This document shows positions 6,861-62,632 of a stretch of 64,000 nt of DNA, one piece after another (positions within the stretch are counted from its first letter, which is position 1; each line of letters begins with the position of its first letter). The translations under genes and the position numbers were made by a program. Source of the DNA: an uncultured Candidatus Saccharibacteria bacterium (GTDB lineage: Bacteria > Patescibacteriota > Saccharimonadia > Saccharimonadales > JAGQNJ01); contig CAZBPY010000003.1 of NCBI GenBank assembly GCA_964493895.1, positions 15,176 through 79,175 on the forward strand, read 5' to 3'. The notes beneath the pieces are model-generated. The model saw nothing but the letters and a program-made list of their open reading frames with translations, had not been told where the DNA came from and ran no database searches.

Positions 6861-7690
6861 TAGGCCTGTATGGTCATTTCGCTGACTTCAACCGGAGCTT
6901 CAAAGGGGTATTCATTAGGATAATCTGATGCAAACGCCCAGAATTCCAGGGATATAAAACTCTTTGCACTATCCTCAAACTCAATATCGTTACAGACATC
7001 GGTGAAGTTTGTGCTATTTAATATATGTGTATTATAACTTGAGTCCTCCGATTTCCGGTTTTTATCTGGACTGGCAACAATCCGTACAGAAGATGCCTTG
7101 TTCGGTTCTGTGACTCGGGCACGCGCGCAGACTTTAAATCTCTTCCCCCAATTCGCTTCAACAAATTTAGGTACTTGAATATATTCTTTTGTAAATTCAG
7201 GCGTCATGATATTGCCAACAACTGGGTCTGAGTGCCATTTAGGACCAGTCTCCCATACGCTTTCAGGTCCGGCAGTAATTGTTACAACATCACTCAGGAC
7301 ATGGTCACGTGAGCTGAGATTTCCGTCATACACTCTGAGCTGGTTGGCAATTAATTTATTGCCAGCTCGCTTTTGGCCTGGCAACGGCTTCCCAGCATAA
7401 TTATAGAGCGCATTCGCGAGCTGGGCTCTTAATAATGGATCGCTTGGTTTAAACGTCCCGTTTTGAAAGCCATTCATCATACCTATGTCAGAGGAAGTCG
7501 CCCAGGTTATGGCATCTTTGGCCCAGGCTGGCGTGTCGGTGAATCTAGCCGTCGTAACCGATTCCGCCTTGGATGAATTGCCTCTCACCCGATTGAATAC
7601 GTAGAATCCGACTGCCACGATCAAAACTATTACTATTAGAATAATAAAGGCTTCTACGTGTGCGAAGCCGCGCTGTCCAATTTTTTTCAT
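6857..7690 (-). CDS. Type IV prepilin-like N-terminus protein with an SLH (S-layer homology) domain
   Basis: N-terminus MKKIGQRG|FAHVEAFIILIVIVLIV matches the G/F...E(+5) prepilin signature. Residues about 49-96 (FTDTPAWAKDAITWATSSDIGMMNGFQNGTFKPSDPLLRAQLANALYNY) match the SLH consensus. Confidence 0.6.
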   Translation of the reverse strand: MKKIGQRGFAHVEAFIILIVIVLIVAVGFYVFNRVRGNSSKAESVTTARFTDTPAWAKDAITWATSSDIGMMNGFQNGTFKPSDPLLRAQLANALYNYAGKPLPGQKRAGNKLIANQLRVYDGNLSSRDHVLSDVVTITAGPESVWETGPKWHSDPVVGNIMTPEFTKEYIQVPKFVEANWGKRFKVCARARVTEPNKASSVRIVASPDKNRKSEDSSYNTHILNSTNFTDVCNDIEFEDSAKSFISLEFWAFASDYPNEYPFEAPVEVSEMTIQAY

Positions 7691-10572: not shown

Positions 10573-10743
10573 TTATTTTACAGACTTGGCAGCCTTCTGG
10601 CTGGCCTTCTTACCTGACTCCCGACGAGTTGTATAAGCCTTGACTGGTGATTGAGCATTCACCGCCCGAGCCAGCTTGACCACCAGGTGACTGCGGCGAG
10701 CCCCTGTTCGGCGCGGAGTGGTTCGTTTCTTGGGCTGTCCCAT
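10573..10743 (-). CDS. rpmF: 50S ribosomal protein L32 (56 aa; absent from the ORF track because it is under 60 aa)
   Basis: Translation MGQPKKRTTPRRTGARRSHLVVK... matches the bL32 N-terminal pattern (PKKRTS..RR..RRSH). Confidence 0.7.
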   Translation of the reverse strand: MGQPKKRTTPRRTGARRSHLVVKLARAVNAQSPVKAYTTRRESGKKASQKAAKSVK

Positions 10744-10818
10744 AAAAAATAATCCCTTTCCTTAAATTTCTAAATCCTTGAAACCTAGTCTACCACTAAA
10801 TCACCCCTGTTTCAAGAG

Positions 10819-13728
10819 CTAGCCAACTACGATGTTGAGAATCTTGTCCGGCACGTAAATGACCTTTTTAATGTCTTTGCCGGCAAGGTGCTTACTGACT
10901 TTTTTGTCATTTTTAGCCGCCTCTTCGGCAACCGCCTGATCGCTGCCAGCCGGAAGTTCCAATTGAGCCCGGACTTTACCGTTAATTTGCACCACCACTG
11001 TCACCACGTCGCTAACAAGATATTTCTCGTCCCACTTGGGCCAGTGGCCAACATGAACTGAATCCTCATGGCCTAGCTGGTGCCACAACTCTTCGGCAAT
11101 AAACGGGGCAAACGGAGCCGCGCACATAACGGTTTTTTCCAGACAATCGCGCCAGACTTTGGACTTAGCAATTCCAGCCTCGCCCTTCAGTTTGTAAAAG
11201 TCATTAACCACTGTCATCAGAGCCGAAATTGCCGTGTTATAGCGTTGTTCGTTAATGTCGTCAGTGACCTTATGAATCATTTTGTTTGTAGCTACCAGAA
11301 GCTGCTTCTCTAGGTCTCGGTCAACTTCTTTCTCGAGGGCATCATTAAATTCTTGGACAAGATTCCACAACCGCGACAGAAATCGGAATGTACCCGGCAC
11401 ACCCTGGGGGTCCCAATTGGTACCCAGCTCTAATGGTGCAGCAAACATCAGGTAGGTGCGTAAAGCGTCAGCCCCATACCCTTGATCGATGATCTCTAGC
11501 GGATCAGCCCCGATACCCTTTGATTTGGAAAATGCGCTGCCATCACTAGCTGTAACTTTGCCATTAAACAGGAATTTCTTGAAGGGCTCGGGATCATTAA
11601 TCAAGCCTCGCTTATGGAAAAAACGGGTTACAAACCGAGCATACAACATATGGGCCGTGGCGTGATCAGCTCCATTATAGAAATCCAGGGGCATCCATTT
11701 GTTGACGCGTTTAATGTCGAAGGCTTGTTTGTCATTGTGCGGATCAAAGTAACGCAGCATGTACCAGCTACTGCAAATATAGGTATCTAGGGTATCGGTT
11801 TCTCGTTCAGCCGGGCCGCCGCATTTTGGACATTTAACTTTCAGCCAGTCCTTAGCCCTTGCCAAGGCGCTGCGTCCATCACCGCTCGGCTTGAAATCAG
11901 TCAATTCAGGCAATATAACTGGCAGGTCTTCATCAGGCACCAACACCGGTCCGTCTTTCGGGCAGTTGATAATTGGGATAGGTGCCCCCCAGTATCTTTG
12001 GCGAGATACGCTCCAGTCACGCATCCGATAGTTAGTTACCGATTTAGCTACGCCCTTTAGTTCCAAATCAGACACAATTTTTTCTCTCGCCTCGGAGGCT
12101 TCCATACCGTCATACTCACCAGAATTTATTAATTCACCCTCTCCTTCAATCGATGTGGTTTCTTGTAGCAAGCTCCAGATCATCTTCTGATTGCTTGGCG
12201 TCAAACGATTCATCACCTCAGATTCATCGACCCACACTAAAGAATGTAACTTCTGTTCCCCTTCGTCAATTTTTTCTTGTTGGTCTAAGTTCTCGACAGT
12301 CGCTAATAACCCGTGGCTAATGCTTTTTCGATTCTGATTTTTATGTGAAGCATTGTAGCGAGCGCTAGTAACCCAAGGAGATTGCTTGATAATTTTGACA
12401 TGTTTAAGGCCGGCTTCTTCTTCAATTTCCATGCGTGCCGCATCCTCAGGCGTTTGGCCCTCCTCGATACCTCCCATGATGGCTGTGGTTATTCCTTCCA
12501 GTGTTCCATGCCAATCTAAAATTGCATACTTCCCAGTTGACTCATCACGCAGATGAACAACAACTGTCTGTCTTTCAACCTCTTCTAGACCTGGGGCTGG
12601 TGGATTTGAAGCATCAGGCGCACTTGGCATGACAACTTGTCGCATTGGCAGATCATATTTCTGAGCGAATTCGAAGTCGCGTTCGTCGTGGGCCGGGACG
12701 GCCATAATTGCGCCAGTTCCGTAACTGAGCAAGACATAATCAGCAATCCAGATAGGAATTTTTTCCTGATTGGCCGGATTGATAGCGTAGGCGCCGGTGA
12801 ACACGCCGGTCTTTTCTTTGGCTGCTTGCCTCTCCACTTCGGTTTTCTTAGCCGTGGACTTGATGTAGTCGTCAACTTCTTTTCTGCGCTCATCCGTTGT
12901 AATCTTGGCAACGATGTCGTGTTCGGGGGCGACAACCATAAAGGTAGCTCCAAACAGGGTGTCCGGCCGGGTGGTAAAGACGGTCAAGATCTCGTCGTGG
13001 CCATCGATCTTAAAGTCAATTTCGGCACCCTGGCTACGTCCAATCCAATTCTTCTGAGCCAGCTTGACGCTTTCTGTCCAATCCAGATCGTCAATAGCCT
13101 CTAGCAGCTCGTCGGCGTAATCCGTGATTTTGAAAAACCACTGCTTGACCTCTTTCTTCTCGACCAGCGGATCATCCGGCCCATCATGCCGCCAACATTT
13201 GCCGTCAATAACCTGCTCATTAGCCAACACCGTCTGGCACTTGGTACACCACCACTGCATCCGAGCATCCTGATAAGCCAGCCCGGCTCGATACATTTCA
13301 GAAAAGATCCATTGTGTCCATTTGTAGTAATCCGGTTGGTGGGTAGCAATTTCTTTGGACCAGTCATTGCTCCAGCCCATGGCCTTATACTGTTTGTGAT
13401 AATTCGGAATAATCTGAGCCATTGATTCTTGCGGCGAAATCCCAGCTTTGATGGCGTAATTCTCAGCCGGCAGACCAAAGCTATCCCAGCCCACCGGGTG
13501 ATAACTTTCATAACCCTGCTGCCTCTTGAACCGAGCCAGTACGTCGCTGATGGTGTAGTTCATGGCGTGGCCGATATGAATGCCAGCCCCGCTGGGGTAA
13601 TTGAACATGCTCATAGCAATAAACTTCGGCCTATCCGAATCTAGATCAGCCTTATAAGTTTGATGTTCATCCCAGTATTTCTGCCACTTCGGTTCAATGG
13701 CTTTTGGATCATAGCGTTTCATCGCCAT
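10819..13728 (-). CDS. leuS: Leucine--tRNA ligase carrying a Nudix-like domain insertion of about 150 aa; the true start is probably the second ATG at 13722
   Basis: HIGH motif (HIGHAMNYT), FGLPAEN, the editing-domain end motif AVPAHDERDFEFA, RDWSVSRQRYWG and FSKSKG (KMSKS) are all present. Residues about 369-530 are an extra domain not present in E. coli LeuRS. Confidence 0.9.
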   Translation of the reverse strand: MAMKRYDPKAIEPKWQKYWDEHQTYKADLDSDRPKFIAMSMFNYPSGAGIHIGHAMNYTISDVLARFKRQQGYESYHPVGWDSFGLPAENYAIKAGISPQESMAQIIPNYHKQYKAMGWSNDWSKEIATHQPDYYKWTQWIFSEMYRAGLAYQDARMQWWCTKCQTVLANEQVIDGKCWRHDGPDDPLVEKKEVKQWFFKITDYADELLEAIDDLDWTESVKLAQKNWIGRSQGAEIDFKIDGHDEILTVFTTRPDTLFGATFMVVAPEHDIVAKITTDERRKEVDDYIKSTAKKTEVERQAAKEKTGVFTGAYAINPANQEKIPIWIADYVLLSYGTGAIMAVPAHDERDFEFAQKYDLPMRQVVMPSAPDASNPPAPGLEEVERQTVVVHLRDESTGKYAILDWHGTLEGITTAIMGGIEEGQTPEDAARMEIEEEAGLKHVKIIKQSPWVTSARYNASHKNQNRKSISHGLLATVENLDQQEKIDEGEQKLHSLVWVDESEVMNRLTPSNQKMIWSLLQETTSIEGEGELINSGEYDGMEASEAREKIVSDLELKGVAKSVTNYRMRDWSVSRQRYWGAPIPIINCPKDGPVLVPDEDLPVILPELTDFKPSGDGRSALARAKDWLKVKCPKCGGPAERETDTLDTYICSSWYMLRYFDPHNDKQAFDIKRVNKWMPLDFYNGADHATAHMLYARFVTRFFHKRGLINDPEPFKKFLFNGKVTASDGSAFSKSKGIGADPLEIIDQGYGADALRTYLMFAAPLELGTNWDPQGVPGTFRFLSRLWNLVQEFNDALEKEVDRDLEKQLLVATNKMIHKVTDDINEQRYNTAISALMTVVNDFYKLKGEAGIAKSKVWRDCLEKTVMCAAPFAPFIAEELWHQLGHEDSVHVGHWPKWDEKYLVSDVVTVVVQINGKVRAQLELPAGSDQAVAEEAAKNDKKVSKHLAGKDIKKVIYVPDKILNIVVG

Positions 13729-21148: not shown

Positions 21149-21706
21149 TTAAAACTTAACGTCAGTCGGTTTTTCAATATTGGCTTGTTCAGCCTCGTCA
21201 ACTTCAAAAAATTCACGAATTTTAAAGCCCATCATGCCAGCAAAAACACTGGTGGGAAAGACCTGGATTTTAGTGTTTAGGTCGCGGACAGAACCGTTAT
21301 AGAATCGCCGCGCAGCCTGGATTTTATCTTCAGTGTCAACCAGTTCGGCCTGCAGTTCTTTGAAATTGTCGCTAGCCTTCAGATCTGGATAGTTCTCGGC
21401 CACGGCAAACAAACTTTTCAAAGCTTGCTCGAATTGGTTATCAGCCTTGGCGGTTTCCGCCGGCCCTTGAGCTTTGGTTATGGCACTACGAGCCTTGGTG
21501 ACTTCTTCAAAAACTCCCTTTTCATGCTTGGCATAACCCTTAACGGTGTTGACTAAATTTGGAATTAAATCACCTCGGCGCTTTAACTGAACTGTAATGT
21601 CGCTCCAGGCCTCATCGACTCGAATTTTGGCTCGAATCAAGCCGTTATAAATCAGCACCAGTATCAGCACTAATGCAGCTGCGGCGATGCCAATGTATAT
21701 CCACAT
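21149..21706 (-). CDS. lemA: LemA family protein
   Basis: N-terminal TM segment plus the LemA core. Start moved to MWIYIG (ATG 21706, SD aGGGGAG) because the longer ORF would overlap the tRNA-Leu gene. Confidence 0.8.
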   Translation of the reverse strand: MWIYIGIAAAALVLILVLIYNGLIRAKIRVDEAWSDITVQLKRRGDLIPNLVNTVKGYAKHEKGVFEEVTKARSAITKAQGPAETAKADNQFEQALKSLFAVAENYPDLKASDNFKELQAELVDTEDKIQAARRFYNGSVRDLNTKIQVFPTSVFAGMMGFKIREFFEVDEAEQANIEKPTDVKF

Positions 21707-21736
21707 AATTTTCTCCCCTGTTAAAACTGTAGTTTC

Positions 21737-21745
21737 ATTATAGCA
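21737..21745 (-). promoter_or_regulatory. Extended -10 TGCTATAAT for lemA-htpX
   Basis: About 30 nt upstream of the lemA ATG, between tRNA-Leu and lemA. Confidence 0.4.
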
Positions 21746-21770
21746 AAATCGCCGGCTGAAAAACAGAAGT

Positions 21771-21857
21771 TGGTGCGCGGGGCGGGACTCGAACCCGCAC
21801 GCCCAGTTGGGCATTTGATTTTAAGTCAAACTTGGCTACCAGTTACAACACCCGCGC
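21771..21857 (-). tRNA. tRNA-Leu (anticodon TAA), long variable arm
   Basis: 87 nt. Acceptor gcgcggg/cccgcgc, anticodon loop cuUAAaa, encoded CCA. Confidence 0.85.
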
Positions 21858-22349
21858 TCTCTGTAATCTTAACGCAACTTTCTTATTTTTGCCACGGTGT
21901 GTTGGTTGCAGACTGTGACAATTGGGACATAATATTCTTAGGTTTACTAACCTATTGTCTGTGGGATCACCATTGATGTGATCTAATTCCACTGGGATTC
22001 TACCGTCTATACTTCTTTCTGCCCATCCACAAATTTCACATTTTGGATTTTTTAATCCATCTTTGTAGAGACGGAGCTTTAGGGTATGGCTTTGGACTTT
22101 GCTGCCTTTTCGAAGCCACTTTTTTGTAGGTGTAATAGGAAGATTAAATTTATACAATCCGCCCTTGTTCCAGCCTCGACCGGTAAAATGATGGGTTGAG
22201 AGTTTTAGTTCAGCAACTCGTTCGGAAACTTGTTTATAGTTGCCGCCTGCCGGAATAAGGCCAATCTTTTTTATTACGGCTCGGTAACTAGTGCAAGTAG
22301 CCACCGCTTTCACTAATTGCTCGTCCGTCCAGCTGCGTTGCTTCGGCAT
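21843..22349 (-). CDS. HNH endonuclease (homing-endonuclease-like) with an N-terminal HTH-like region
   Basis: ELDHINGDPTDNRLVNLRILCPNCHS HNH/zinc motif. The 3' end overlaps the 5' end of tRNA-Leu(TAA) by about 15 nt. Confidence 0.75.
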   Translation of the reverse strand: MPKQRSWTDEQLVKAVATCTSYRAVIKKIGLIPAGGNYKQVSERVAELKLSTHHFTGRGWNKGGLYKFNLPITPTKKWLRKGSKVQSHTLKLRLYKDGLKNPKCEICGWAERSIDGRIPVELDHINGDPTDNRLVNLRILCPNCHSLQPTHRGKNKKVALRLQRARVL

Positions 22350-22643
22350 ACAGCCAGAGTACCAAACACATATTAAATACCTATTAAACGTGAATAATTT
22401 GGAGGCGCGTACGAGATTTGCACTCGTGTATAAGGTTTTGCAGACCTTTGCCTAACTCCTCGGCCAACGCGCCGCATAATATCCCTGTTCATTGTAACGT
22501 AAACCCCTGTTCAAGAAAATCGCTAAATATAGACCATTACATCCGACGACAGCCGGTTTTTTATGATCTAACCTAGCCCCTCTTCGCGAATTGCTCGGCA
22601 ATATCTTTATTTATAACCCAGAGGTTGGTTTGCCATCTCTGTC

Positions 22644-44793: not shown

Positions 44794-45843
44794 CTAGTAA
44801 ATGTAGCTGTAGGCGGCAGCCTGAGCAGCTGATAGAGTCTTGTGCGAAACAACTCCCCAACCGACAACGTTCATTTCTGAAACATTAACACTGCCGTCGG
44901 AGTTAACCGATTCAACATAACCGACGTGACCGTAATAGTCGCGGGGTGGCGTCCAGATGACTGCGCCAGCTCTAGGGACGTTACCGACAGAGAAACCAGC
45001 CCTTTGAGCCAATACCTTCCATGTGGAAGCGTTACCCAGGTTATTAGGCAAGTCTGGACGACGGTTTTTGACATACCATGTACAATAGCCGTAGTCATAG
45101 CCATTGCCGCCATAAATCGCGCCATTACCCCAGGCAAAACCACCAGAGGTAGCCACGTTAGAAAGGCTTGGGTTACTGATAGCTCGACTAGCCGGTTGAG
45201 CTCCAGGCAAGACAATGTATTCTCCGACTGGCAGATTACCGCTTTCAACGTCGTTAAAAGCAACAACTTGGTCGCGGTTAGCCTGATATTTACTTAAAAT
45301 GCTGTCGATGGTATCACTAGCGGCCACCTTGTAAACAATACCGTTAATAGGTGAAATGACCAGTACTTGGCCAGGGGTCAAAGAGTCACCGCTCAAATTG
45401 TTTGACCAACGAATGGTATCAGAGGTCACACCGAATTTAGCTGCTACTGACGAGACGTCATCGCCAGCTTGAACAGTATAATTTTGGATATCAGCCCGTG
45501 ATTTTAGAGCTGTAGCAATAATCTGCGGCCGAGCCGTTACCACGTTATCAGACGGTGCAAAGTTCAGCTGAGCATTAACTGTATCGGCTTGGTTGGCTAC
45601 GGCCCTCTTTTCAGGCAAGTCGGCTACCCACGCCACATTGACGGCAATGTCAGCCGAGGAAATAGCGTCTAACGGATTGACTATCTCGTCAGCCACATCG
45701 CTAGTCGCTAGGCTATTAGCCTGGGCAGTGTTGGTAGTTTGCGGCTTTTGAGCTACAAAGGCCACCACGACCATCAACAGAATAGCGTTACCGACTAACA
45801 GAGAGTAGCGAATCGTTTTGCCGCGATTCTTTTTACTAAACAT
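44794..45843 (-). CDS. Peptidoglycan hydrolase with two LysM domains and a C-terminal CHAP domain
   Basis: N-terminal TM anchor. LysM repeats (YTVQAGDDVSSVAAKFGV, YKVAASDTIDSILSKY). CHAP Cys (CTWYV) and His (YGHVGYVE). Confidence 0.8.
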   Translation of the reverse strand: MFSKKNRGKTIRYSLLVGNAILLMVVVAFVAQKPQTTNTAQANSLATSDVADEIVNPLDAISSADIAVNVAWVADLPEKRAVANQADTVNAQLNFAPSDNVVTARPQIIATALKSRADIQNYTVQAGDDVSSVAAKFGVTSDTIRWSNNLSGDSLTPGQVLVISPINGIVYKVAASDTIDSILSKYQANRDQVVAFNDVESGNLPVGEYIVLPGAQPASRAISNPSLSNVATSGGFAWGNGAIYGGNGYDYGYCTWYVKNRRPDLPNNLGNASTWKVLAQRAGFSVGNVPRAGAVIWTPPRDYYGHVGYVESVNSDGSVNVSEMNVVGWGVVSHKTLSAAQAAAYSYIY

Positions 45844-46074: not shown

Positions 46075-47112
46075 CTAATTACAGAGAGTTTTACAATATT
46101 TTTTAGTATTTTGCTCGTGTTCTTCCTGGGTATGGGCAAAATGGGTCGTGCCATCATCACCTGACACAAAGTATAGGTAATCTGTTGGAGCTGGATTGAT
46201 AACAGCGTTCAGTGCTGAAATCTCGATATTGCTAATTGGTCCCGGCGGTAAGCCATTGTTAAAATAGGTATTATAAGGTGAATCAAAGGTCAATGACGGC
46301 GGCTGACCGGCTAAGATTGCTCCGTAGCCAGAGGTGGCATCTGATTGGAGGCGCATGCCTTCCCGCAAGCGACGCAAGAACACCTGGGCCACAATCGGCC
46401 GGTCAGCCGCCCGGGCCACCTCTTGCTCTACCATAGAAGCCAGGATTATACCCTGGTGTACAGTCAATCCCTGAGCCACAATCGCCGCCCGTACCTCTGG
46501 GGTAAGGCGTTTTTGCATCTCATCCAAACTTGATTTGATAATACTGTGCGGATTGGTGTTAGCCGTTTTTTGGAAGCTCTCAGGGTAAAGATAGCCCTCC
46601 AGGCTGGCTCCAGCCGGTTTGTCGACCAGGGCAGGATGGCCTTCGTACTGGGTTGGCTCTAGGGCAGCATGAACTTCTTCGGGGTCAAAACCACTGTTAA
46701 TCAGGGCTGCGCTGACCTGATCTAGCCGCGTTCCAGGTACAATTGTCACCAGATCAATCGTCACGTCACCTCTTGCCAGTATCTCGACAATCTCTGGCAC
46801 AGATTGGCTGGGCCTTAAGGCATAGGTCCCCGCCTTCAGATCTTCGCGCAAACTCTGGTTTTTAACATACCAATCAAAAGCCCACGATTCCCGGATAAGT
46901 CCTTGTTCCTTTAAATCACGGCCGATTTCCTGGACTGTGGCACCGCTTGGCACCTCAACAACGACAATATTTTGCGAGTTGCTAACCGGTTCTAAAGCCC
47001 GGTCATACATGACACGCACTAAAATGGCCGTGGACAGCACTAACACCACCGCTACAGATACCAGTACGGTTATTTTCTTGGCTTTACTGGTCATATTCGA
47101 CCACCACTTCAT
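46075..47112 (-). CDS. mltG: Endolytic murein transglycosylase MltG (YceG-like)
   Basis: N-terminal TM segment and YceG domain. Position after ruvX is conserved. Confidence 0.8.
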   Translation of the reverse strand: MKWWSNMTSKAKKITVLVSVAVVLVLSTAILVRVMYDRALEPVSNSQNIVVVEVPSGATVQEIGRDLKEQGLIRESWAFDWYVKNQSLREDLKAGTYALRPSQSVPEIVEILARGDVTIDLVTIVPGTRLDQVSAALINSGFDPEEVHAALEPTQYEGHPALVDKPAGASLEGYLYPESFQKTANTNPHSIIKSSLDEMQKRLTPEVRAAIVAQGLTVHQGIILASMVEQEVARAADRPIVAQVFLRRLREGMRLQSDATSGYGAILAGQPPSLTFDSPYNTYFNNGLPPGPISNIEISALNAVINPAPTDYLYFVSGDDGTTHFAHTQEEHEQNTKKYCKTLCN

Positions 47113-47522
47113 AAATGCTCCTCAATATAATCTTGCAGTATTAGTGTAGCAGCTTCAGCATCAATCGCCTCCTTAGGATAAGCATCCCCCCGCCGGCGCA
47201 AGACAGTCTCGGCTTTAATAGAACTTTCGGCTTCATCGTGGAAGACAAACTCTACCGGCACTTCTTTTTGCAAACGGTTAACAAAATCACGAACAAATTT
47301 GGTCTGCTCAGTATCTTCTAAATTCTGATTTTGCGGCAAGCCGACAACCACAGTTCTAGCTTTTTCGTCCTCTATAATTTCTTTCAGGGTATCGACCACC
47401 GTATCGTCATTTGTCACAGTTTTAAGCGGCTCGGCAATTTTAGCAATCACATTTGCCCTAGCCACGCCAATGCGCACAGCTCCAACATCAAGGCAAATCA
47501 AAGATTCATCGACAGCATTCAT
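47109..47522 (-). CDS. ruvX: Holliday-junction-resolvase-like nuclease RuvX/YqgF
   Basis: LDVGAVRIGVA RNase H-like motif. alaS-ruvX-mltG synteny. Confidence 0.85.
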   Translation of the reverse strand: MNAVDESLICLDVGAVRIGVARANVIAKIAEPLKTVTNDDTVVDTLKEIIEDEKARTVVVGLPQNQNLEDTEQTKFVRDFVNRLQKEVPVEFVFHDEAESSIKAETVLRRRGDAYPKEAIDAEAATLILQDYIEEHL

Positions 47523-47526
47523 AAGC

Positions 47527-49164
47527 TTAGTTTGCCGAATTAAATTCGACGGTTATTTTCTTGGTAGCCTTCGGTGTGCGCGACACCCAGAAGGGACTGT
47601 AGTCGACCTCGACACTTTTTACCCCCGGCAAACTCCGGACGGCATTTTCAGTCTCACCGCGTTTTTTGCCGCGGATTTCTTCTTTGAGAGTATCTATATC
47701 GATGTCCGGACCGACTTCTGCTTTGGTGCTGACCTCAATGACAGTGTCACCATTCTCGGCCACTGATTTCACAGTAAAGGTAGCCTGGTCTAGTCCATCC
47801 TCCTGAACCATCTGTCGCTCAATATCGATTTCATCTTTGAGACTTTGTTCAACCAACTTCTTTAGATCATCACGTTCAATACCAAGCATGGTGTAATCCG
47901 CCGAATAAGTCACCTTAACCTCGTTGCCTTCTTGATCGACGCCTGGACTCGGAGTAGTTGATTCGTTGGATTTTTTAAATGAACTTTGGATAACGAAAAA
48001 TTTATCTTTCTCTAGCTGATCTTGAAGATTTTTCTTGACCACGTCGTCTTTGGCAGCAATTTTGGCTTTGGCCGTTTCAACATCCTGAGCCGTTACCACC
48101 CGAGCTATTTTGCTGCTACCGCCCTTCATTTGACCGCCGCGGCCGCTGACATTGCTATACCCAGAGACGGTGTAATTGGCCGGACCAATATTATATTGAT
48201 CGCCATTATTTTGAGCATTAACTACAGTTGTTCCAGTAAAGCTACAGCCGCCATTGAAGTTTGGCGTTGTTAACGAGGCCGAACTTTGGGTTATGAAAGT
48301 CAAACCATTAGTACTTACCCCAGTTCCTGCCGGAATAGTCGGCGGCGAACCGCTGACTGCTGAGCAAGGAATTGATAGGGTCATATTGCCGCTGGCTTTG
48401 GTGCCAAGATCTTTTTGGCCAGTCGCCGGCGCCGTCTGGGTTTCGTCAACTTTTTCAGTCACTAATTTGGCTGGCACCACTTTGGCTGACTCATCTAACT
48501 GGGATGAGGCCGGGCTAGCTATAAACTCAAAACTGGTATCGACAGATTCGGTGTCAGTTTCGATGGCAATTGTAGCCTTTGGTAAGACAACCACAGCCAA
48601 GATAAATAACAAGACTGCCCCAGCTACAGCACCAATAATCAACAGGATTTTTTTGCGGAACTGTTCAAAGTTAGGAATTTTTGGACTTTTGCCCTTGCCT
48701 GGTTTCTTAGACTTGGACTTCGGTGTTTTAGCCGAGCTACCTTTTAAAGCCGCTGAGGCCGCTGCAGCGTCAGTTTCCTCTTCCATGTCAATGTCATCTT
48801 CGGTCTTGGCGGCCGGGGTGGTTTCTGGCTCGAGATGAGCCTCTAACTCCTCGTCGTCGACCACCTTCTTATCGGGAGCCGCCGGAATCTCCGGCTTGGA
48901 GTTCAGGTTCTTGGCCACATGCAAACCGGTTGCGCCGGCCAAAGGCAGCAAGCCTTTCTCAGATGTAATTAGAACCGGACTTTTACCAGCCTCGTCAGCA
49001 GCCCGTTTTAAAAGCTTCATATTGACAATGCTCTGCAATGCTGCGGTTCTCTTAGGCAAGACTAAAGCCACAATCTTGGAATCGCTCTTAGACAGCTTGT
49101 CAATAACGGCGGTGATTTCGTCGTCTATATCAATGTAGATGGTGTCTTTTTTCTCAGCAGCCAT
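47527..49164 (-). CDS. Hypothetical membrane protein: cytoplasmic N-domain, acidic/Pro linker, one TM segment, large extracytoplasmic domain
   Basis: TM segment ILLIIGAVAGAVLLFILAVVVL near residue 180. Lies immediately downstream of the ftsA-like gene. Confidence 0.55.
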   Translation of the reverse strand: MAAEKKDTIYIDIDDEITAVIDKLSKSDSKIVALVLPKRTAALQSIVNMKLLKRAADEAGKSPVLITSEKGLLPLAGATGLHVAKNLNSKPEIPAAPDKKVVDDEELEAHLEPETTPAAKTEDDIDMEEETDAAAASAALKGSSAKTPKSKSKKPGKGKSPKIPNFEQFRKKILLIIGAVAGAVLLFILAVVVLPKATIAIETDTESVDTSFEFIASPASSQLDESAKVVPAKLVTEKVDETQTAPATGQKDLGTKASGNMTLSIPCSAVSGSPPTIPAGTGVSTNGLTFITQSSASLTTPNFNGGCSFTGTTVVNAQNNGDQYNIGPANYTVSGYSNVSGRGGQMKGGSSKIARVVTAQDVETAKAKIAAKDDVVKKNLQDQLEKDKFFVIQSSFKKSNESTTPSPGVDQEGNEVKVTYSADYTMLGIERDDLKKLVEQSLKDEIDIERQMVQEDGLDQATFTVKSVAENGDTVIEVSTKAEVGPDIDIDTLKEEIRGKKRGETENAVRSLPGVKSVEVDYSPFWVSRTPKATKKITVEFNSAN

Positions 49165-49183
49165 AATAAACCTATTTTTCAGT

Positions 49184-50476
49184 TTACACTTTCAAAATTC
49201 TATCCAGTCGTTCGCGTATCGAACCGCTTGGGGCATTGAGTTCTTGCTGAAGCGTATCAAGACCAACACGGAGAAGACCCATAGCGGTAATAAAGGTATG
49301 GTCGCTAACATCGCCGGTTTTGTCAACAATACCGACCACTTGACCGGGCTTGATGTGATGAACCTGCGGCTTTTTGGTGAATGGTAAACTTCGGTACCAG
49401 TCAGTGGAGTTGAGTTCATGCATCAGCATTTCAAGTGACGAGCCGCCTCCGCACAGCAGTAGTTTCTGCGGTAAATGATCCAGTTGGTCAAATTCGCTCA
49501 GGGCCAATTCAACACCGCTCATCCAAACATCCAAGGTCTTTTCTAAAGCTCTGGTGACATCCTTGTTTTCTTTGACCGGATGAGCTCCGTCCGACAGCGC
49601 CGTTTTTAGTTGTTCAGCCTTGTCAAACGGTATGTCTAGCTCCCTTTCGATAGAGCGGGTGTAAGCCCGGCCGCCAATGCCAAACATCTTTGTTCCCTGG
49701 ACTCCGCCGTCGTTGATAACGGCAATATCGGTGGTGCCGCCACCGACATCCATCAAGATTGCGCTCATGTTGGCATTGCCGTCATCGCCAATAACTGATC
49801 GGGCCACAGCAAATGGCTCGGCAGCCACCGCCAGCAAATCCAGGTCCAATTCCTGGGCAGCCCGTTCCAGTGCCCCAATATGCACCAACGGCGCAAAAGC
49901 TGTGTATAGCTGAACCACCACATCTTTACCCTGAAAACCAAGCGGATTGGTCACCTTATAGCCGTCAATCTCAATGCCAACTAGAGCGCTGTTGACCAGG
50001 CGAATCTCAACCTCTTTGCCGCCCATTTCCCAGGCCAGCTGATTTCGGGCTTTTTCTTCGGCCCGACTTTGAACAACTTTGATGATTTGCTCAACTTCGG
50101 CGATGTCCAGAGGTTTTTCAGCATCGGCGCGTTTGACACGGACAGTGGTTGTAGTGCCTTTGACCAGTTCGCCAGCGATGCCGATAACAGCTGTTCTGGC
50201 GCTGATTCCAGCCTGCTCCTCGGCCTCAGCCAAAGCTTTGTCACAATTAGCCACCACCCCTGAAATATCGGCAATGGCTCCGGCTTGCATATCACCTAAA
50301 CTCTGATGAGCCCGGCCAACGCCAATAACCTCAACGCCCTTATCTGTTATACGGGCAATCAGAGCCTTCACAAATTCGGTACCAACATCCAAAGCCACCA
50401 AATAGCGGTCCGAACTAACCTTTGTCGGCGCCTTATCGGTAGCTGCCTGTTTCAGCTTCTTTATTTTCTCAAGCAT
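49184..50476 (-). CDS. ftsA: Actin-like ATPase of the FtsA/PilM family (cell division protein FtsA-like)
   Basis: LDVGTEFVK phosphate-1, DVGGGTTDIAV phosphate-2 and an AEQLK adenosine-like motif. Length 430 aa fits FtsA better than PilM. Confidence 0.6.
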   Translation of the reverse strand: MLEKIKKLKQAATDKAPTKVSSDRYLVALDVGTEFVKALIARITDKGVEVIGVGRAHQSLGDMQAGAIADISGVVANCDKALAEAEEQAGISARTAVIGIAGELVKGTTTTVRVKRADAEKPLDIAEVEQIIKVVQSRAEEKARNQLAWEMGGKEVEIRLVNSALVGIEIDGYKVTNPLGFQGKDVVVQLYTAFAPLVHIGALERAAQELDLDLLAVAAEPFAVARSVIGDDGNANMSAILMDVGGGTTDIAVINDGGVQGTKMFGIGGRAYTRSIERELDIPFDKAEQLKTALSDGAHPVKENKDVTRALEKTLDVWMSGVELALSEFDQLDHLPQKLLLCGGGSSLEMLMHELNSTDWYRSLPFTKKPQVHHIKPGQVVGIVDKTGDVSDHTFITAMGLLRVGLDTLQQELNAPSGSIRERLDRILKV

Positions 50477-50518
50477 AATTATCTCTGGTAATTATAGCAT
50501 GAGCGTAAACAGTTACGG

Positions 50519-52483
50519 CTATTGGAGTACAGCTTTTATGCGGCGTATACCGGCAGAGGATGATTCTTCTTTGACAATCTTGAATTTCTTACCGTCTTCG
50601 GTCAATTGAGCAGTGTGCTCAACATGCGGACCGCCGCAGATTTCGAAACTGTAGGGCCGCTCATCGGGCGGTGACTTCGGATCTTTCATCGAATAAACTT
50701 TGACAGTGTCGCCATAGCGGTCGCCAAACTGTCCCAAAGCTCCTAGTTTGCCGGTGGCCTCTTCGGTAGGATATTCTTTCCAGGTAATTTTCAGATCCTT
50801 AGCAATCTCACGATTGACGATGTCTTCGACTTGTTTGATCTCTTCTGGCGTAACTTTTTGAGGATGCGAGAAATCGAACCGTAAGCGTTCCTCGGTGATA
50901 TTCGAGCCATGCTGAATCACATGATCCCCTAGGACATCGCGCAGAGCCTGATACATCAAGTGCGTCGCCGTGTGGTACTTCCTGTGTTGCATGGTCTGAC
51001 CGCCCAAACCACCTTTGAATGTACCCTTTGCCGCCGTTTGTGACCTCTGACGCTGTTCTTCCATCTTGGTATCAAACTGTTTTTTCCAATTCTTTGATAC
51101 CGGTATGTCTCGTTTAAAGGCTTCCTCTAGACTAAGCTCTACAGGAAAACCATGCGTATCATATAGTTTAAAAATTAGTTCTCCATTAATCTCTTTTTTC
51201 TTAACGGAGGCAAGAATTTTATTTCCATTTTCATCTGTAATACTATCTCCATCGTGATCCGTCAGAGGTTCGTTCTTCAAAAACTCTTTCAAACCTTTGC
51301 GCAGCGTCTGACGGAAAACTTTTTCTTCTTTGGTCAAGACTTCTATGACCTTGGTTTCATTCTTAGCAACTTCCGGAAAATCTTCCTTGTAGAGATCGAC
51401 TATCACTGGCACAACTTCCTGGAGGAAGTTCTGCTCGACACCAAGATCAAAAGCAAAACGAATAGCTCGGCGCAACAAACGGCGCATCACATAGCCTTGC
51501 TCTTTGTTAGAAGGAGTGACCCCGTCGACCGCCAGCCAAGTGGCACCCTTGAGATGATCAGCAATAACCCGCATAGCATTGGTGTTGGAATCGTAGGTTT
51601 TGCCACTTAATTTCTCTAGTTTCTCAATTATGGGCCAAAACAGGCTAATTCGGAAAACGTCCGGATTATCCAAAACGGCGGCAGCGATACGTTCCAGGCC
51701 AGAACCTTGGTCGATGTTCGGAGCTTCCAACTCCACAAAACCATCTTCGGTTTTCTTATAGCCCATGAAGACGTTGTTGCCGATTTCGAAAAACCGCGGT
51801 GAATCGCTGGCCGGATGTGGTTTACCCCATTTCGTTTCATCGTGATACTGCTCGCCAAAATCAAAGAACATCTCAGAATCCGGCCCGCACGGATCACCCA
51901 CCAAGGTTCCTTCCTCATCACCGTTACGGCTCCACCAGTTTTCCTGGCCGTCATAGAGGAAGATGCGCCCTCCTTGCATGCCCAGTTCGGCTCCCTTTTC
52001 AGCAGGACCAACTTCAACGACTTTGGCGTCAATGCCGCGCTTTTTAAACTCAGCTTGCCACAAAGAAATGGCTTCATCGTCCCTAGGGATGCCGTATTTT
52101 TCGTTGCCGATATAGCACGAAACATAGACTCGATTCGGGTCCAGGCCAACTTCGTCGAACAAAAACTCGGCCATCCAAGGAATTTGCTCTTTCTTGAAAT
52201 AATCCCCCAAACTCCAGTTGCCCAGCATCTCAAATGTCGTGGTGTGCGATTCGTCGCCAACTTCCTCAATATCCTGGGCTCGCAAACACACCTGACTATC
52301 TGTTAACCGTTTACCTTTGGGATGAGTCTCGCCCAGCAGATACGGTATCATCGGCTGCATACCCGACCCAGTAAACAGCGTCGTTGGATCGTTTTGCGGC
52401 ACTAAAAGAGCCCGCGGAATAATCTTATGCCCGCGCTCCTCAAAAAATTTCAAGTATGCCTGGCGAATTTCCTGAGCTGTCAT
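50519..52483 (-). CDS. alaS: Alanine--tRNA ligase (short form lacking the C-Ala domain)
   Basis: Class II catalytic core and editing domain HxxxH/CxxxH (HTATHLMYQAL). Start set at MTAQEIRQ (ATG 52483) with TGTTATAAT 7 nt upstream. Confidence 0.9.
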   Translation of the reverse strand: MTAQEIRQAYLKFFEERGHKIIPRALLVPQNDPTTLFTGSGMQPMIPYLLGETHPKGKRLTDSQVCLRAQDIEEVGDESHTTTFEMLGNWSLGDYFKKEQIPWMAEFLFDEVGLDPNRVYVSCYIGNEKYGIPRDDEAISLWQAEFKKRGIDAKVVEVGPAEKGAELGMQGGRIFLYDGQENWWSRNGDEEGTLVGDPCGPDSEMFFDFGEQYHDETKWGKPHPASDSPRFFEIGNNVFMGYKKTEDGFVELEAPNIDQGSGLERIAAAVLDNPDVFRISLFWPIIEKLEKLSGKTYDSNTNAMRVIADHLKGATWLAVDGVTPSNKEQGYVMRRLLRRAIRFAFDLGVEQNFLQEVVPVIVDLYKEDFPEVAKNETKVIEVLTKEEKVFRQTLRKGLKEFLKNEPLTDHDGDSITDENGNKILASVKKKEINGELIFKLYDTHGFPVELSLEEAFKRDIPVSKNWKKQFDTKMEEQRQRSQTAAKGTFKGGLGGQTMQHRKYHTATHLMYQALRDVLGDHVIQHGSNITEERLRFDFSHPQKVTPEEIKQVEDIVNREIAKDLKITWKEYPTEEATGKLGALGQFGDRYGDTVKVYSMKDPKSPPDERPYSFEICGGPHVEHTAQLTEDGKKFKIVKEESSSAGIRRIKAVLQ

Positions 52484-52490
52484 CTGCTCT

Positions 52491-52499
52491 ATTATAACA
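52491..52499 (-). promoter_or_regulatory. Extended -10 TGTTATAAT, 7 nt upstream of the alaS ATG (leaderless-type)
   Basis: Same acctctgttataatag 15-mer as upstream of leuS. Confidence 0.45.
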
Positions 52500-52503
52500 G
52501 AGG

Positions 52504-52755
52504 TTAGTCTTTGGTCGAGCAGAGCAGTAGAATGCCCGATACTGGGTTCACAAATATCAGCGTGCAAACGCCGAAGGCGACGGTGTTATTCTTGGTTCCT
52601 TTGTAAATACCCCAAGAAATGACGGTCATTGGAATCATCCAGGCCAACGGAATAAGTAGCCAACCGAACGCTACAGTTGAAATAATGTTAAAAATAAAGG
52701 CAATCAAGCGTAGCGTCTCATCGGTGCTGCTAACATTTGTTTTTGCTTTTGCCAT
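52504..52755 (-). CDS. Hypothetical small membrane protein (83 aa)
   Basis: Two TM helices. aGGGAG SD 6 nt upstream. Confidence 0.45.
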   Translation of the reverse strand: MAKAKTNVSSTDETLRLIAFIFNIISTVAFGWLLIPLAWMIPMTVISWGIYKGTKNNTVAFGVCTLIFVNPVSGILLLCSTKD

Positions 52756-60601: not shown

Positions 60602-61675
60602 CTACTCAGCGATTACGCCGATTTTGAATTGTTCTAGTTGACTAGCGGCGCTGGAGCTGTGCGGTGTGCCGCTGCCAATTGATCGGCCGTCAGCATCTTG
60701 GCGTTGGGTGAAGTGAGTGGTTGCATCTATGCCGCAGGCGCGCAAGATCTCAGATCCGCCAGGGTGGCTGGCAATAAAATCAGTGATGTCATAGACTGAA
60801 CCACGAATTATTGTCCAGCAATCCTCGGAGTTGTCATGAGTAGCTACTTCAGCAACCGTAAAAACCTCTCCCTCGATCGTCTCTGTCTCGGTCTCTGGAG
60901 CATCCTCGAATTCCTCAATCACAGTGCTGGTTTCCTCTACCGGTTGTTCGTCCTTATTGAGCTGGCCGTAGACTAACCAACCACCGCCGACCAATACGGC
61001 CATCACGACGATAATAGCTATTACTTTCTTCATTAATTTACCCTCCTTGTGGGCTTTAATTGCTTCGACTATTTGAATATACCCTATGCACACGGCTAAG
61101 ACCAAGGCATACCAAAGCCAAAGCGTTCTGTACCAACCTTGCTGTAGATTGGCACCCAATGCCAAAGCATGAGCTACAATCGCAAACATGGCAATGATTT
61201 GAGCGTACTCAATAATCGGCCACCAATTTTTTTGCTCGAACCAGCGCTTAGTCTCGAAGGCCAGAAAGGTCAGGAAAGCCAACGTCCCGAAAGTGGCTGC
61301 CCACTGCAAACTTATTCCAACATATTCCAGATAGCTCCCGGGCGGAAAACCAAGCCCCGCCAGCCAAAGACCGGCAATTAACAGAGACGGGTGCAGCAAA
61401 ATAAAAATCAACGCCGCCCAGCCAGTAACCTTAAAGTAATGTTTGAGCGGTTCCTTTTCTACCCCAGCCGCTCGCCTAATGGCTCCGACGACGTAATGAG
61501 CCCACATCAAGCTGAACGCCAACAGACCAAAGAGAGGGAAGAGCCGAAAATCAGTAAAAGTGGCTAATTCAAAACCTTCATAAACCTGCCCCCAGGCTAT
61601 GACGGCCAAAAGGCAGACCACCACACTTAAGGCCCAGGCGCTGGCGATAACCCCCCTTTGTTTCATACGAAGCAT
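60602..61675 (-). CDS. Polytopic membrane protein (His-rich six-TM heme-binding-like N-domain) fused to a C-terminal cytochrome b5-like domain
   Basis: C-terminus SEDCWTIIRGSVYDITDFIASHPGG matches the cytochrome b5 HPGG heme-binding motif. N-terminal six TM helices have conserved His. Confidence 0.6.
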   Translation of the reverse strand: MLRMKQRGVIASAWALSVVVCLLAVIAWGQVYEGFELATFTDFRLFPLFGLLAFSLMWAHYVVGAIRRAAGVEKEPLKHYFKVTGWAALIFILLHPSLLIAGLWLAGLGFPPGSYLEYVGISLQWAATFGTLAFLTFLAFETKRWFEQKNWWPIIEYAQIIAMFAIVAHALALGANLQQGWYRTLWLWYALVLAVCIGYIQIVEAIKAHKEGKLMKKVIAIIVVMAVLVGGGWLVYGQLNKDEQPVEETSTVIEEFEDAPETETETIEGEVFTVAEVATHDNSEDCWTIIRGSVYDITDFIASHPGGSEILRACGIDATTHFTQRQDADGRSIGSGTPHSSSAASQLEQFKIGVIAE

Positions 61676-62243: not shown

Positions 62244-62632
62244 TGGTGGAGCTGCAGGGAATTGCACCCTGGTCCGCGGGATTATTCGGTTAGTCGTCTA
62301 CAGGCTTAGTTTGTTTTCGATACTTGAAGCCGGGCCTAAAAACAAACAAAATAGCACGCGACTCGCAGTCCTAAAGTCTTAAGTTGCTTTACGGATCATA
62401 AAGCAACCGCAGCCAGAAAATATGGCACGCTCTAGGCCTATCCGGCGTCAGACTAGGCGCGGCTGTAGGCAATTAAGCTACAGCTGGTGCGAAAGCTAGA
62501 GCTTTGAACGGATTCAAAGCAGCTAGGCGTTCACTAATAGATGTTTTTGCATCTAAAAAAACTGCCTATAACGCTGACAAGCGGCCTGCGGATCTAACCA
62601 ATAAAGTCCTACGTCGAGCTAAAATCAGCCCC
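62244..62632 (-). ncRNA. ssrA: tmRNA (SsrA), 389 nt; predicted tag AKTSISERLAALNPFKALAFAPAVA
   Basis: 5' GGGGCUGAUUUUAGCUCGACGUAGGAC (compare E. coli GGGGCUGAUUCUGGAUUCGACGGGAU). tRNA-like 3' end with T-arm cagggUGCAAUUccctg, acceptor CAGCUCC-A-CCA and a G3:U Ala determinant. Resume codon GCA at RNA position 83. Tag ORF 62473..62550 ends UAA. Confidence 0.8.

Follow-up and report, generated by a model that had tools for sequence, protein, structure and literature searches.

A conserved FtsA/PilM-family ATPase and a bitopic partner with a baseplate-like ectodomain as a candidate cytoskeleton-to-envelope module in Saccharibacteria

Introduction

In the FtsA-FtsN pair, a membrane-proximal scaffold holds a bitopic protein by a short peptide on the cytoplasmic side, and the outer part of the bitopic protein acts on the wall. 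The contact is made through subdomain 1C of FtsA, and FtsA subdomain 2B binds the tail of FtsZ. In PilM-PilN(-PilO), and in the fused GspL of type II secretion, an FtsA-like ATPase is followed by a bitopic protein with a motif adjoining its transmembrane (TM) segment. MreB-RodZ combines an actin-like protein carrying an N-terminal amphipathic helix with a bitopic adaptor. Outside the cytoskeleton, the baseplate wedge proteins (P2 gpJ, Mu gp47, T4 gp6, and TssF of the type VI secretion system; PF04865) oligomerise into rings. Here we describe two adjacent genes, A and B, located between alaS and ruvX-mltG in a 64,000-nucleotide stretch of contig CAZBPY010000003.1 (the window), whose named homologues identify the host as Candidatus Saccharibacteria (Patescibacteria, or Candidate Phyla Radiation, CPR). 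We read A-B as a two-protein module found throughout Saccharibacteria, a third descendant of the FtsA/PilM family that acts as a cytoskeleton-to-envelope coupler, and put the probability of this reading at roughly 0.45.

The pair resembles each of the described systems in part. Like FtsA, its best match by sequence, profile and structure, A has an actin fold, and it has a putative SHS2/1C-type insertion and a putative terminal amphipathic helix. Unlike FtsA, it misses the curated thresholds, has no adjacent ftsZ and belongs to a lineage that owns a separate, true FtsA; it also differs by a variable 2B region and an extra conserved, putatively amphipathic helix at the N-terminus. B is unrelated to FtsN, FtsQ and ZipA. 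The order of the two genes is that of PilM-PilN, and Foldseek searches with A match PilM and PilM:PilN structures, but A falls under the PilM thresholds and the pair has no pilus gene context, with ruvX and mltG as the next genes. Compared with PilN, B has an additional 95-amino-acid (aa) cytoplasmic domain, a 65-aa disordered linker and a baseplate-J-like ectodomain. The likeness to MreB-RodZ is a functional analogy only: B, like RodZ, combines a small globular N-domain in the cytoplasm, basic residues next to the membrane, one TM segment and an extracytoplasmic domain, but A falls in the FtsA clade and not with MreB, the N-domain of B is not the RodZ helix-turn-helix, and mreC, mreD and rodA are not adjacent. 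Baseplate wedge proteins match the B ectodomain in fold and domain order, whereas B is a membrane-anchored cellular protein with a cytoplasmic domain and no tail, sheath or baseplate genes nearby. The A-B pair is best described as following the theme of an FtsA/PilM-type protein plus a bitopic partner, the partner having an architecture without a described counterpart.

Both genes are already public, in genome annotations and in one published data table. No literature discussing the pair was found; it appears only in the supplementary tables of Wang et al. 2023 (PMC10633639), on which the main text is silent. What is new is the interpretation of A-B as a third, distinct module.

Results

Conservation of A-B across Saccharibacteria

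The A-B-ruvX-mltG unit was fixed in the 169 Saccharibacterial loci that could be judged. In loci from JGI contigs and GTDB species genomes, B adjoined A in 82 of 82, and the order (mnmA)-alaS-A-B-ruvX-mltG-LysM/CHAP-obg-exoI was kept wherever the contig extended. A metagenome scan with an A-specific motif yielded 120 further loci, with identities down to 55% for A and 29% for B. Thirty-two of these ended too early to be judged, and 87 of the 88 with enough downstream sequence had B directly 3' of A; the sole exception was a frameshifted assembly that still showed the PNF motif described below. Across about 200 loci, A identity ranged from 55 to 91% and A was never found beside ftsZ. A search of 1.84 billion representatives with a profile of B retrieved 10,950 representative clusters at E<=1e-3, of which 3,044 reached E<=1e-30. 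The thousands of homologues, together with the conserved gene order in every related locus examined, indicate that A and B are real genes and not chance open reading frames (ORFs).

The first-pass annotation had regarded the pair as interrupting an alaS-ruvX-mltG synteny. This wording is misleading, since A-B-ruvX-mltG forms an ancient, fixed, operon-like unit in the lineage. Median gaps across loci were 3 nt between A and B and -4 nt between ruvX and mltG. The spacing of alaS and A, by contrast, varied from 7 to 3330 nt (median 418 nt), and some genomes carry additional genes there. Locus L087, from a divergent low-GC Saccharibacterium, has a 462-aa Lys/Glu-rich single-pass membrane protein (10604..11992 of that locus, minus strand) between alaS and A, and in locus L002 the same slot holds a formyltransferase and an unannotated 338-aa gene. 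These insertions mark the alaS-A junction as a variable insertion point; A-B-ruvX-mltG itself was never interrupted. One metagenome contig (L169) had the same gene order with nearly every gene frameshifted, probably the mark of a poor-quality long-read assembly and not of pseudogenisation.

Median identity to the window protein was 69% for A, the highest value in the block, which was shared by mnmA (69%) and followed by alaS (66%), obg (62%), mltG (54%), B (43%) and ruvX (42%). The parts of B differed widely: mean pairwise identity was 70.5% in its cytoplasmic domain, against 69.3% for A, 40% for the B ectodomain and 26.8% for the B linker. The evolutionary rates of A and B covary. The distance matrix of A correlated with those of the B N-domain (r=0.71) and B ectodomain (r=0.73), compared with 0.32 for alaS and 0.57 for obg, and the partial correlation of A with B, controlling for alaS and obg, was 0.61-0.63.

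Genomic neighbourhood and transcription unit

Gene A (49184..50476, 430 aa) and gene B (47527..49164, 545 aa) are minus-strand ORFs with ATG starts. Upstream of A is alaS (50519..52567, minus strand; PF01411, tRNA-synt_2c, 8e-113). Downstream and co-directional with B are ruvX (YqgF; 47109..47522, minus strand; PF03652, 3e-31) and mltG (YceG endolytic transglycosylase; 46075..47112, minus strand; PF02618, 3e-77). The next gene downstream, also conserved in position, encodes a LysM-CHAP peptidoglycan hydrolase (44794..45843, minus strand; CHAP 7e-20, LysM 3e-16). The arrangement of two ORFs between alaS and ruvX-mltG is exactly that given in the first-pass annotation, and Pfam confirmed the flanking genes. 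In the window, 42 nt separate alaS from A, 19 nt A from B and 4 nt B from ruvX; ruvX and mltG overlap by 4 nt. The GC content of A-B resembled that of the flanks, which argues against recent insertion.

An extended -10 promoter-like element, TGCTATAAT (50491..50499, minus strand), ends 14 nt 5' of the A start codon. It was spotted by direct inspection of the sequence; a generic promoter and terminator scan was uninformative, with counts that barely exceeded those of shuffled sequence. Of 70 related loci, 51 had the pattern TGnTAnAAT in the 60 nt preceding A; where individual examples were inspected, it lay just 5' of the start codon. No Shine-Dalgarno sequence was found between the element and the A start in the window. 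The position of the element and the lack of a Shine-Dalgarno sequence suggest that A heads its own transcription unit on an almost leaderless mRNA. Judged from sequence, A-B-ruvX-mltG is thus a conserved unit predicted to be headed by A behind an extended -10 element.

Neither ftsZ nor pilus machinery was found in a search of the 64-kb window, so the earlier observation that no ftsZ follows the pair holds over the whole window. Genes pilB, pilC, pilT and pilD and pilins were absent from the window and from the annotated related loci, and neither a paralogous ftsA nor ftsZ turned up when the window and 1.4 Mb of retrieved loci were searched.

Protein A

A is, as the first-pass annotation had proposed, an actin-fold ATPase of the FtsA/PilM clade; it is closest to FtsA by sequence and predicted fold. 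The sole above-threshold Pfam match was FtsA PF14450 (51 bits; cut-off 31.8), with PilM_2, EutA and MreB below threshold. NCBIfam ranked ftsA first, yet none of the more specific cut-offs was reached: TIGR01174 gave 116.4 bits against an equivalog cut-off of 175.85, and NF007009, the FtsA equivalog, 57.8 against 409. Scores for PilM were 25.2 bits against 27 (PF11104) and 37.3 against 133 (TIGR01175), and for MreB they were 20.6 against 27 (PF06723) and 18.4 against 366 (TIGR00904). A sequence search of the PDB returned FtsA 7q6f first (9e-14, residues 18-293) and PilM next (2e-6).

The AlphaFold2 (AF2) model of A had a mean predicted local distance difference test score (pLDDT) of 69 and a predicted template modelling score (pTM) of 0.66. 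Foldseek E-values for this model were 8e-25 to 1e-19 with FtsA structures, 2e-19 to 5e-15 with PilM, and no better than 1e-9 with EutJ or MreB. Weak matches of A included EutJ, EutA, DnaK and diol-dehydratase reactivase.

The three nucleotide-binding motifs of A (DxGT, DVGGGTTD and CGGGSS) were invariant in the alignment of A (alignment A2). The phosphate-1 motif ALDVGTEFVKA occupies residues 28-38 (50363..50395, minus strand), with D30, G32, T33, E34 and K37 invariant. The phosphate-2 motif LMDVGGGTTDIA occupies residues 241-252 (49721..49756, minus strand), with D243 and G245-D250 invariant, and the adenosine-binding motif LLLCGGGSSL occupies residues 339-348 (49433..49462, minus strand), with L341-L348 invariant. 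From these motifs A is predicted to be an FtsA-like protein competent to bind ATP.

A putative SHS2-like insertion of the FtsA 1C type, with a strand-helix-strand-strand order, spans residues 100-180 (49937..50179, minus strand). In the AF2 model, which is of moderate confidence, strands were assigned at 106-115, 157-170 and 173-175 and a helix at 125-150. The region aligned with FtsA across its stretch and was well conserved (0.64-0.86), and Pfam SHS2_FTSA (PF02491) had no match in A. Residues 281-320 (49517..49636, minus strand), the 2B-subdomain region, were the least conserved part of the core, at 0.43-0.44 compared with 0.7-0.9 elsewhere.

Both ends of A carry putative amphipathic helices. 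Residues 1-12, MLEKIKKLKQAA (50441..50476, minus strand), form a conserved basic N-terminal helix, predicted at low confidence, that is a candidate membrane-binding element. M1, L2 and K4 were near-invariant in alignment A2, and the N-terminal pattern MLDKxKxL was followed by a spacer of variable length. The hydrophobic moment of this helix was on a par with known membrane-targeting helices. At the other end, a variable linker is followed by residues 418-430, GSIRERLDRILKV (49187..49225, minus strand), a conserved C-terminal amphipathic helix (predicted at 420-429) with the pattern GSxRExIDRMLxV. Its hydrophobic moment was in the 98th percentile of the protein's 11-mers and its charges were mixed.

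Protein B

B is a bitopic protein oriented N-in/C-out, with a single hydrophobic segment at about residues 172-195; the topology proposed for it earlier (a cytoplasmic N-domain, an acidic linker, one TM segment and an ectodomain) was borne out. Its architecture was drawn from an alignment of 39 homologues (alignment A1) and an AF2 model with a mean pLDDT of 82.8. No match to B was obtained in Pfam or NCBIfam, including POTRA, FtsQ and SPOR domains and PilN, PilO and GspM. The name assigned to B in related genomes by the Prokaryotic Genome Annotation Pipeline (PGAP) is 'baseplate J/gp47 family protein'.

Residues 1-95 (48880..49164, minus strand) were predicted to form a cytoplasmic alpha/beta domain of order b-a-b-a-b-a-b (pLDDT 78-90). 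YxDxDxEIT, LPKR, SIxN..LL, VLI(TSE) and KP..P were invariant in this domain (alignment A1). The N-domain had no Pfam match and did not match the RodZ helix-turn-helix. A structure-based annotation of the Southlakia epibionticum orthologue agrees with the architecture derived here and assigned the N-domain to ECOD 'SpoIIaa-like' (PMC10633639 Table S2). Residues 96-160 (48685..48879, minus strand) form a disordered linker, acidic and then basic, with pLDDT <50 over 99-160.

An invariant juxtamembrane motif, PNFxxFR, follows on the cytoplasmic side (KIPNFEQFR, residues 162-170; 48655..48681, minus strand). P164, F166, F169 and R170 were identical in 63 of 63 sequences and N165 in 55 of 63, and the motif was kept even in the most divergent lineage, L087. 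This conservation makes PNFxxFR a candidate docking peptide for A. The sole TM helix lies at residues 172-195 by hydropathy (48580..48651, minus strand; AF2 helix 166-193). Ten Lys/Arg residues precede it and one follows. Exactly two Cys residues occurred in the ectodomain of 63 of 63 homologues and none in the cytoplasmic part of 60 of 63; window B agrees, with two in the ectodomain and none before the membrane. The positive-inside charge count and the Cys distribution support the N-in/C-out topology, with a putative extracytoplasmic disulfide.

Residues 196-545 (47530..48579, minus strand) were modelled as a beta-rich, multi-domain ectodomain (pLDDT mostly >90) with the Cys pair C267/C307 and a C-terminal YSPFW. 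Foldseek matches in the PDB were the cyanophage A-1(L) baseplate protein 8kea (1e-5, 337 columns, probability 1.0), a GlxA barrel (3e-5), matched by the beta-barrel of B, and the P1 and phiCD508 baseplates. Against BFVD, baseplate J-like proteins were matched over 330-360 columns at probability 1.0. TM-scores to baseplate proteins were low because the domains are oriented and arranged differently. By the model, the predicted fold of the ectodomain is like that of the phage baseplate-J/gp6 wedge. PF04865 had no match in window B, even with the ectodomain alone at E<=10. Some B homologues carry precomputed PF04865 or PF21110 matches and some GlxA matches, and phrog_6 'baseplate wedge' matched one homologue (P0098) at 3e-8, over residues 257-360 only.

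Paralogues and fitness data in related genomes

In S. epibionticum ML1 the corresponding gene string is alaS (SEML1_0657), SEML1_0656, SEML1_0655, ruvX (0654), mltG (0653), LysM (0652) and obg (0651) (Wang et al. 2023, PMC10633639). Window A and B were matched to SEML1_0656 and SEML1_0655 by synteny and size, not by sequence. SEML1_0656 is 427 aa long, has PF14450 only and is labelled 'pilus assembly protein PilM' by PGAP; SEML1_0655, at 556 aa, is a 'baseplate J/gp47 family protein' (PMC10633639). The same genome has a separate canonical ftsA, SEML1_0174 (PF02491 SHS2), beside ftsZ, SEML1_0175, and two pilM-pilN-pilO sets, 0104-0106 and 0760-0762; its tables contain no MreB, SepF or DivIVA entries (PMC10633639). 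These separate ftsA-ftsZ and pilMNO genes, together with the sub-cut-off scores of A, indicate that A-B is neither the divisome FtsA nor the PilM-PilN of type IV pili (T4P).

Both PilM genes of N. lyticus TM7x lie in dedicated pilus loci, and the survey of its T4P genes does not include the A-B locus (PMC11623550). TM7x_02800, annotated FtsA, is located far from ftsZ (TM7x_00785) and is transcriptionally regulated during host recovery; its orthology to A is only inferred.

Transposon sequencing (Tn-seq) of S. epibionticum, with genes called non-essential (NE), growth defect (GD) or essential (ES), gave NE, NE and, at the last passage, GD for the A orthologue (normalised reads 2427, 660 and 221) and NE, ES and ES for the B orthologue (373, 34 and 24) (PMC10633639 Table S1). 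Both therefore show fitness defects. The calls for ftsA and ftsZ were GD, ES and ES, with near-zero reads from T0 (PMC10633639 Table S1); ruvX was NE, ES and ES, and mltG was NE (PMC10633639). The A and B orthologues are flagged in the tables of PMC10633639 as 'core' and 'Patescibacteria-enriched' families of Meheust et al. 2019. The flag for A may reflect assignment to a merged FtsA/PilM family.

Other features of the window

The remainder of the window is ordinary housekeeping: tRNAs, transfer-messenger RNA (tmRNA), leuS, ligA, uvrA, uvrC, obg, ABC transporters and others. The ORF at 6857..7690 (minus strand, 277 aa) begins MKKIGQRG|FAHVEAFIILIVIVLIVAV, a class III (prepilin-type) signal with G-1, F+1 and E+5. 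Pfam recognises in it only an S-layer homology (SLH) domain, which spans residues 50-92 and scores 29 bits, and a pilin-like N-terminus combined with SLH is unusual. The signal peptidase I homologue (5295..6860, plus strand, 521 aa) has its S26 domain at residues 336-512 only, the N-terminal 335 residues being without a Pfam match.

The listed alaS ORF (TTG start, 682 aa) overlaps an upstream 83-aa ORF with two TM segments (52504..52755, minus strand). Orthologues of alaS are 629-636 aa long, so that the true start is probably an internal Met (MTAQEIRQAYLKFFE...). The window AlaRS is short, with no Pfam-matched region past the SAD domain. The leucyl-tRNA synthetase (10819..13728, minus strand, 969 aa) contains a NUDIX match (PF00293, 8e-10) at residues 415-515, immediately following the editing domain.

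A 168-aa ORF (21771..22473, minus strand) located between tRNA-Leu(taa) and tRNA-Cys carries an HNH endonuclease motif (PF13392). At its listed 5' end, the LemA ORF (21149..21814) overlaps the same tRNA-Leu(taa). The arrangement could reflect either an over-extended ORF call or a small mobile or homing element within a tRNA cluster. A 357-aa protein (60602..61675, minus strand) has a C-terminal cytochrome b5-like heme/steroid-binding domain (PF00173, 1e-17), which is unexpected given the reduced metabolism. The tmRNA (62244..62632, minus strand) encodes a long tag peptide of 25 residues, AKTSISERLAALNPFKALAFAPAVA.

Discussion

The reading of A-B as a third FtsA/PilM-family module implies a sequence of steps, most of which are modelled on PilM-PilN, FtsA-FtsN and MreB-RodZ. 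By analogy with all three, A would form oligomers or filaments at the cytoplasmic surface of the membrane, held there by an amphipathic terminus. As in PilM-PilN and FtsA-FtsN, A might then capture the cytoplasmic part of B, taking PNFxxFR into a 1A/1C groove, binding the acidic N-domain, or both. Capture would position or cluster the wedge-like ectodomain of B, which probably oligomerises, in the wall zone. The output would be organised remodelling of the envelope or peptidoglycan for growth, shape or budding, in a lineage without MreB/RodZ. This output is the weakest step of the mechanism. Co-transcription with mltG, the nearby essential LysM-CHAP hydrolase and the lack of MreB point to wall or envelope morphogenesis. 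A more specific picture, which we offer as speculative and on balance doubtful, is of an FtsA-derived submembrane filament that uses a single-pass adaptor to organise wedge-like domains into a ring or lattice outside the cell, marking sites of wall remodelling (e.g., the budding pole or the site of host contact). Such a module, built in part from a phage-type fold, would stand in for MreB/RodZ in Saccharibacteria and possibly in Patescibacteria more widely.

Several points weigh against a cytoskeleton-to-envelope coupler. The link to peptidoglycan comes from the gene neighbourhood only. Moreover, alaS-ruvX-mltG is an old housekeeping synteny that is present without A-B in other phyla, and the neighbourhood of A-B may be incidental. 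The Tn-seq phenotype of B was stronger than that of A, a poor fit to a simple obligate pair, and could be a polar effect on the essential ruvX just downstream. The model of A is of only moderate confidence (pLDDT 69), and adjacent genes may also evolve at covarying rates through a shared history of recombination. Relatives outside Saccharibacteria were sought in GTDB, among the weakest representatives, in the metagenome scan with the A motif and in a search that started from the most divergent B, and only loci with Saccharibacterial synteny or names were returned. Finally, mltG is non-essential in S. epibionticum (PMC10633639).

The two roles offered in the first-pass annotation start from the nearest relatives of A. 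In the divisome version, A would be a second FtsA at the septum or bud neck, working with FtsZ and the canonical FtsA, and B an FtsN-, FtsQ- or DivIB-like relay of signals to septal wall enzymes. FtsA is the top match of A in sequence, profile and fold searches alike, the putative SHS2-like insertion of A sits at the 1C position by which FtsA binds the cytoplasmic peptide of bitopic FtsN, and the neighbours MltG and LysM-CHAP are wall-cleaving enzymes; the regulation of the FtsA-annotated TM7x_02800 in host recovery would fit as well, if it is the orthologue. We nevertheless consider this role unlikely. A stays under the FtsA equivalog cut-offs, no ftsZ lies beside it in about 200 loci, the region equivalent to the FtsZ-binding 2B is its least conserved part, and B has no POTRA, FtsQ or SPOR similarity, while the canonical ftsA-ftsZ of S. 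epibionticum is separate and far more essential than the A-B orthologues. Clear FtsA best hits combined with a known divisome partner, the outcome that would make the pair ordinary, were thus not what was found, and the pair is not an ordinary one. In the pilus version, a pilus, competence or secretion apparatus with its genes elsewhere in the genome would use A-B as a PilM-PilN-like alignment or platform pair, B being an enlarged PilN/GspL-type protein; this version seems to us less likely again. It can draw on the sub-threshold PilM matches of A, its structural matches to PilM and PilM:PilN complexes, the PGAP name of the S. epibionticum orthologue and the pilM-pilN order of an ATPase followed by a bitopic protein with a short conserved motif beside the TM helix, and pili are central to Saccharibacterial biology (PMC6744442, PMC11623550). 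The PilM scores are, however, under the cut-offs and weaker than those for FtsA, and B lacks a PilN, PilO or GspM match, its ectodomain being baseplate-J-like and not ferredoxin-like as in PilN/PilO. In no locus do pilB, pilC, pilT, pilD or pilin genes adjoin the pair, and the T4P systems of S. epibionticum and TM7x already own PilM-PilN-PilO, with the A-B locus left out of the TM7x survey (PMC11623550). The window does hold the prepilin-like ORF at 6857..7690, to which the pair had been connected earlier; that ORF has a prepilin-like N-terminus but lies 40 kb away, and the connection found no support.

Other explanations start from more distant likenesses. A could be a non-polymerising ATPase of the Hsp70/EutJ type, a chaperone or switch for the conformation or turnover of B. 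Its ATP-binding motifs are intact, it has the weak matches to EutJ, EutA, DnaK and diol-dehydratase reactivase, and the SpoIIAA/STAS-like assignment of the B N-domain names a fold typical of partner-switching modules. FtsA and PilM, which are membrane-associated scaffolds, match better by many orders of magnitude, and the high whole-surface conservation and amphipathic termini of A would fit polymer-forming, membrane-bound actin homologues better, making this explanation improbable. A remnant of a prophage or contractile injection system, with B as a phage baseplate J protein and A as a phage partition-like actin, is suggested by the wedge-like ectodomain, by the database name of B and by a weak match of A to a PHROG 'partition protein' family. 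For the present gene it is effectively refuted: the housekeeping position is fixed in about 200 genomes, GC content is normal, the surroundings hold no further phage or tail genes, B had no tblastn match in 50,697 phage genomes, IMG/VR held no relative, PADLOC returned no meaningful match, and B, unlike virion proteins, has both a TM helix and a cytoplasmic domain. An ancient phage origin of the ectodomain fold of B is possible. A defence system was also rejected, as PADLOC gave trivial partial matches only.

The third-module interpretation of A-B bears on how these genomes are read. Saccharibacteria, like other Patescibacteria, are ultrasmall epibionts with reduced genomes, in which genes kept in every member are likely to be important; A-B is as conserved as a tRNA synthetase and is associated with Tn-seq fitness defects in the one genetically tractable species. 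The database labels 'FtsA', 'PilM' and 'baseplate J' obscure that the pair is none of these, and recognising a third module corrects annotation-based inferences on division and pili in CPR genomes. B exemplifies a phage baseplate-wedge fold, as predicted, serving as the ectodomain of a cellular membrane protein. Together, A and B are a testable candidate for the control of shape, budding or the envelope in epibionts that lack MreB.

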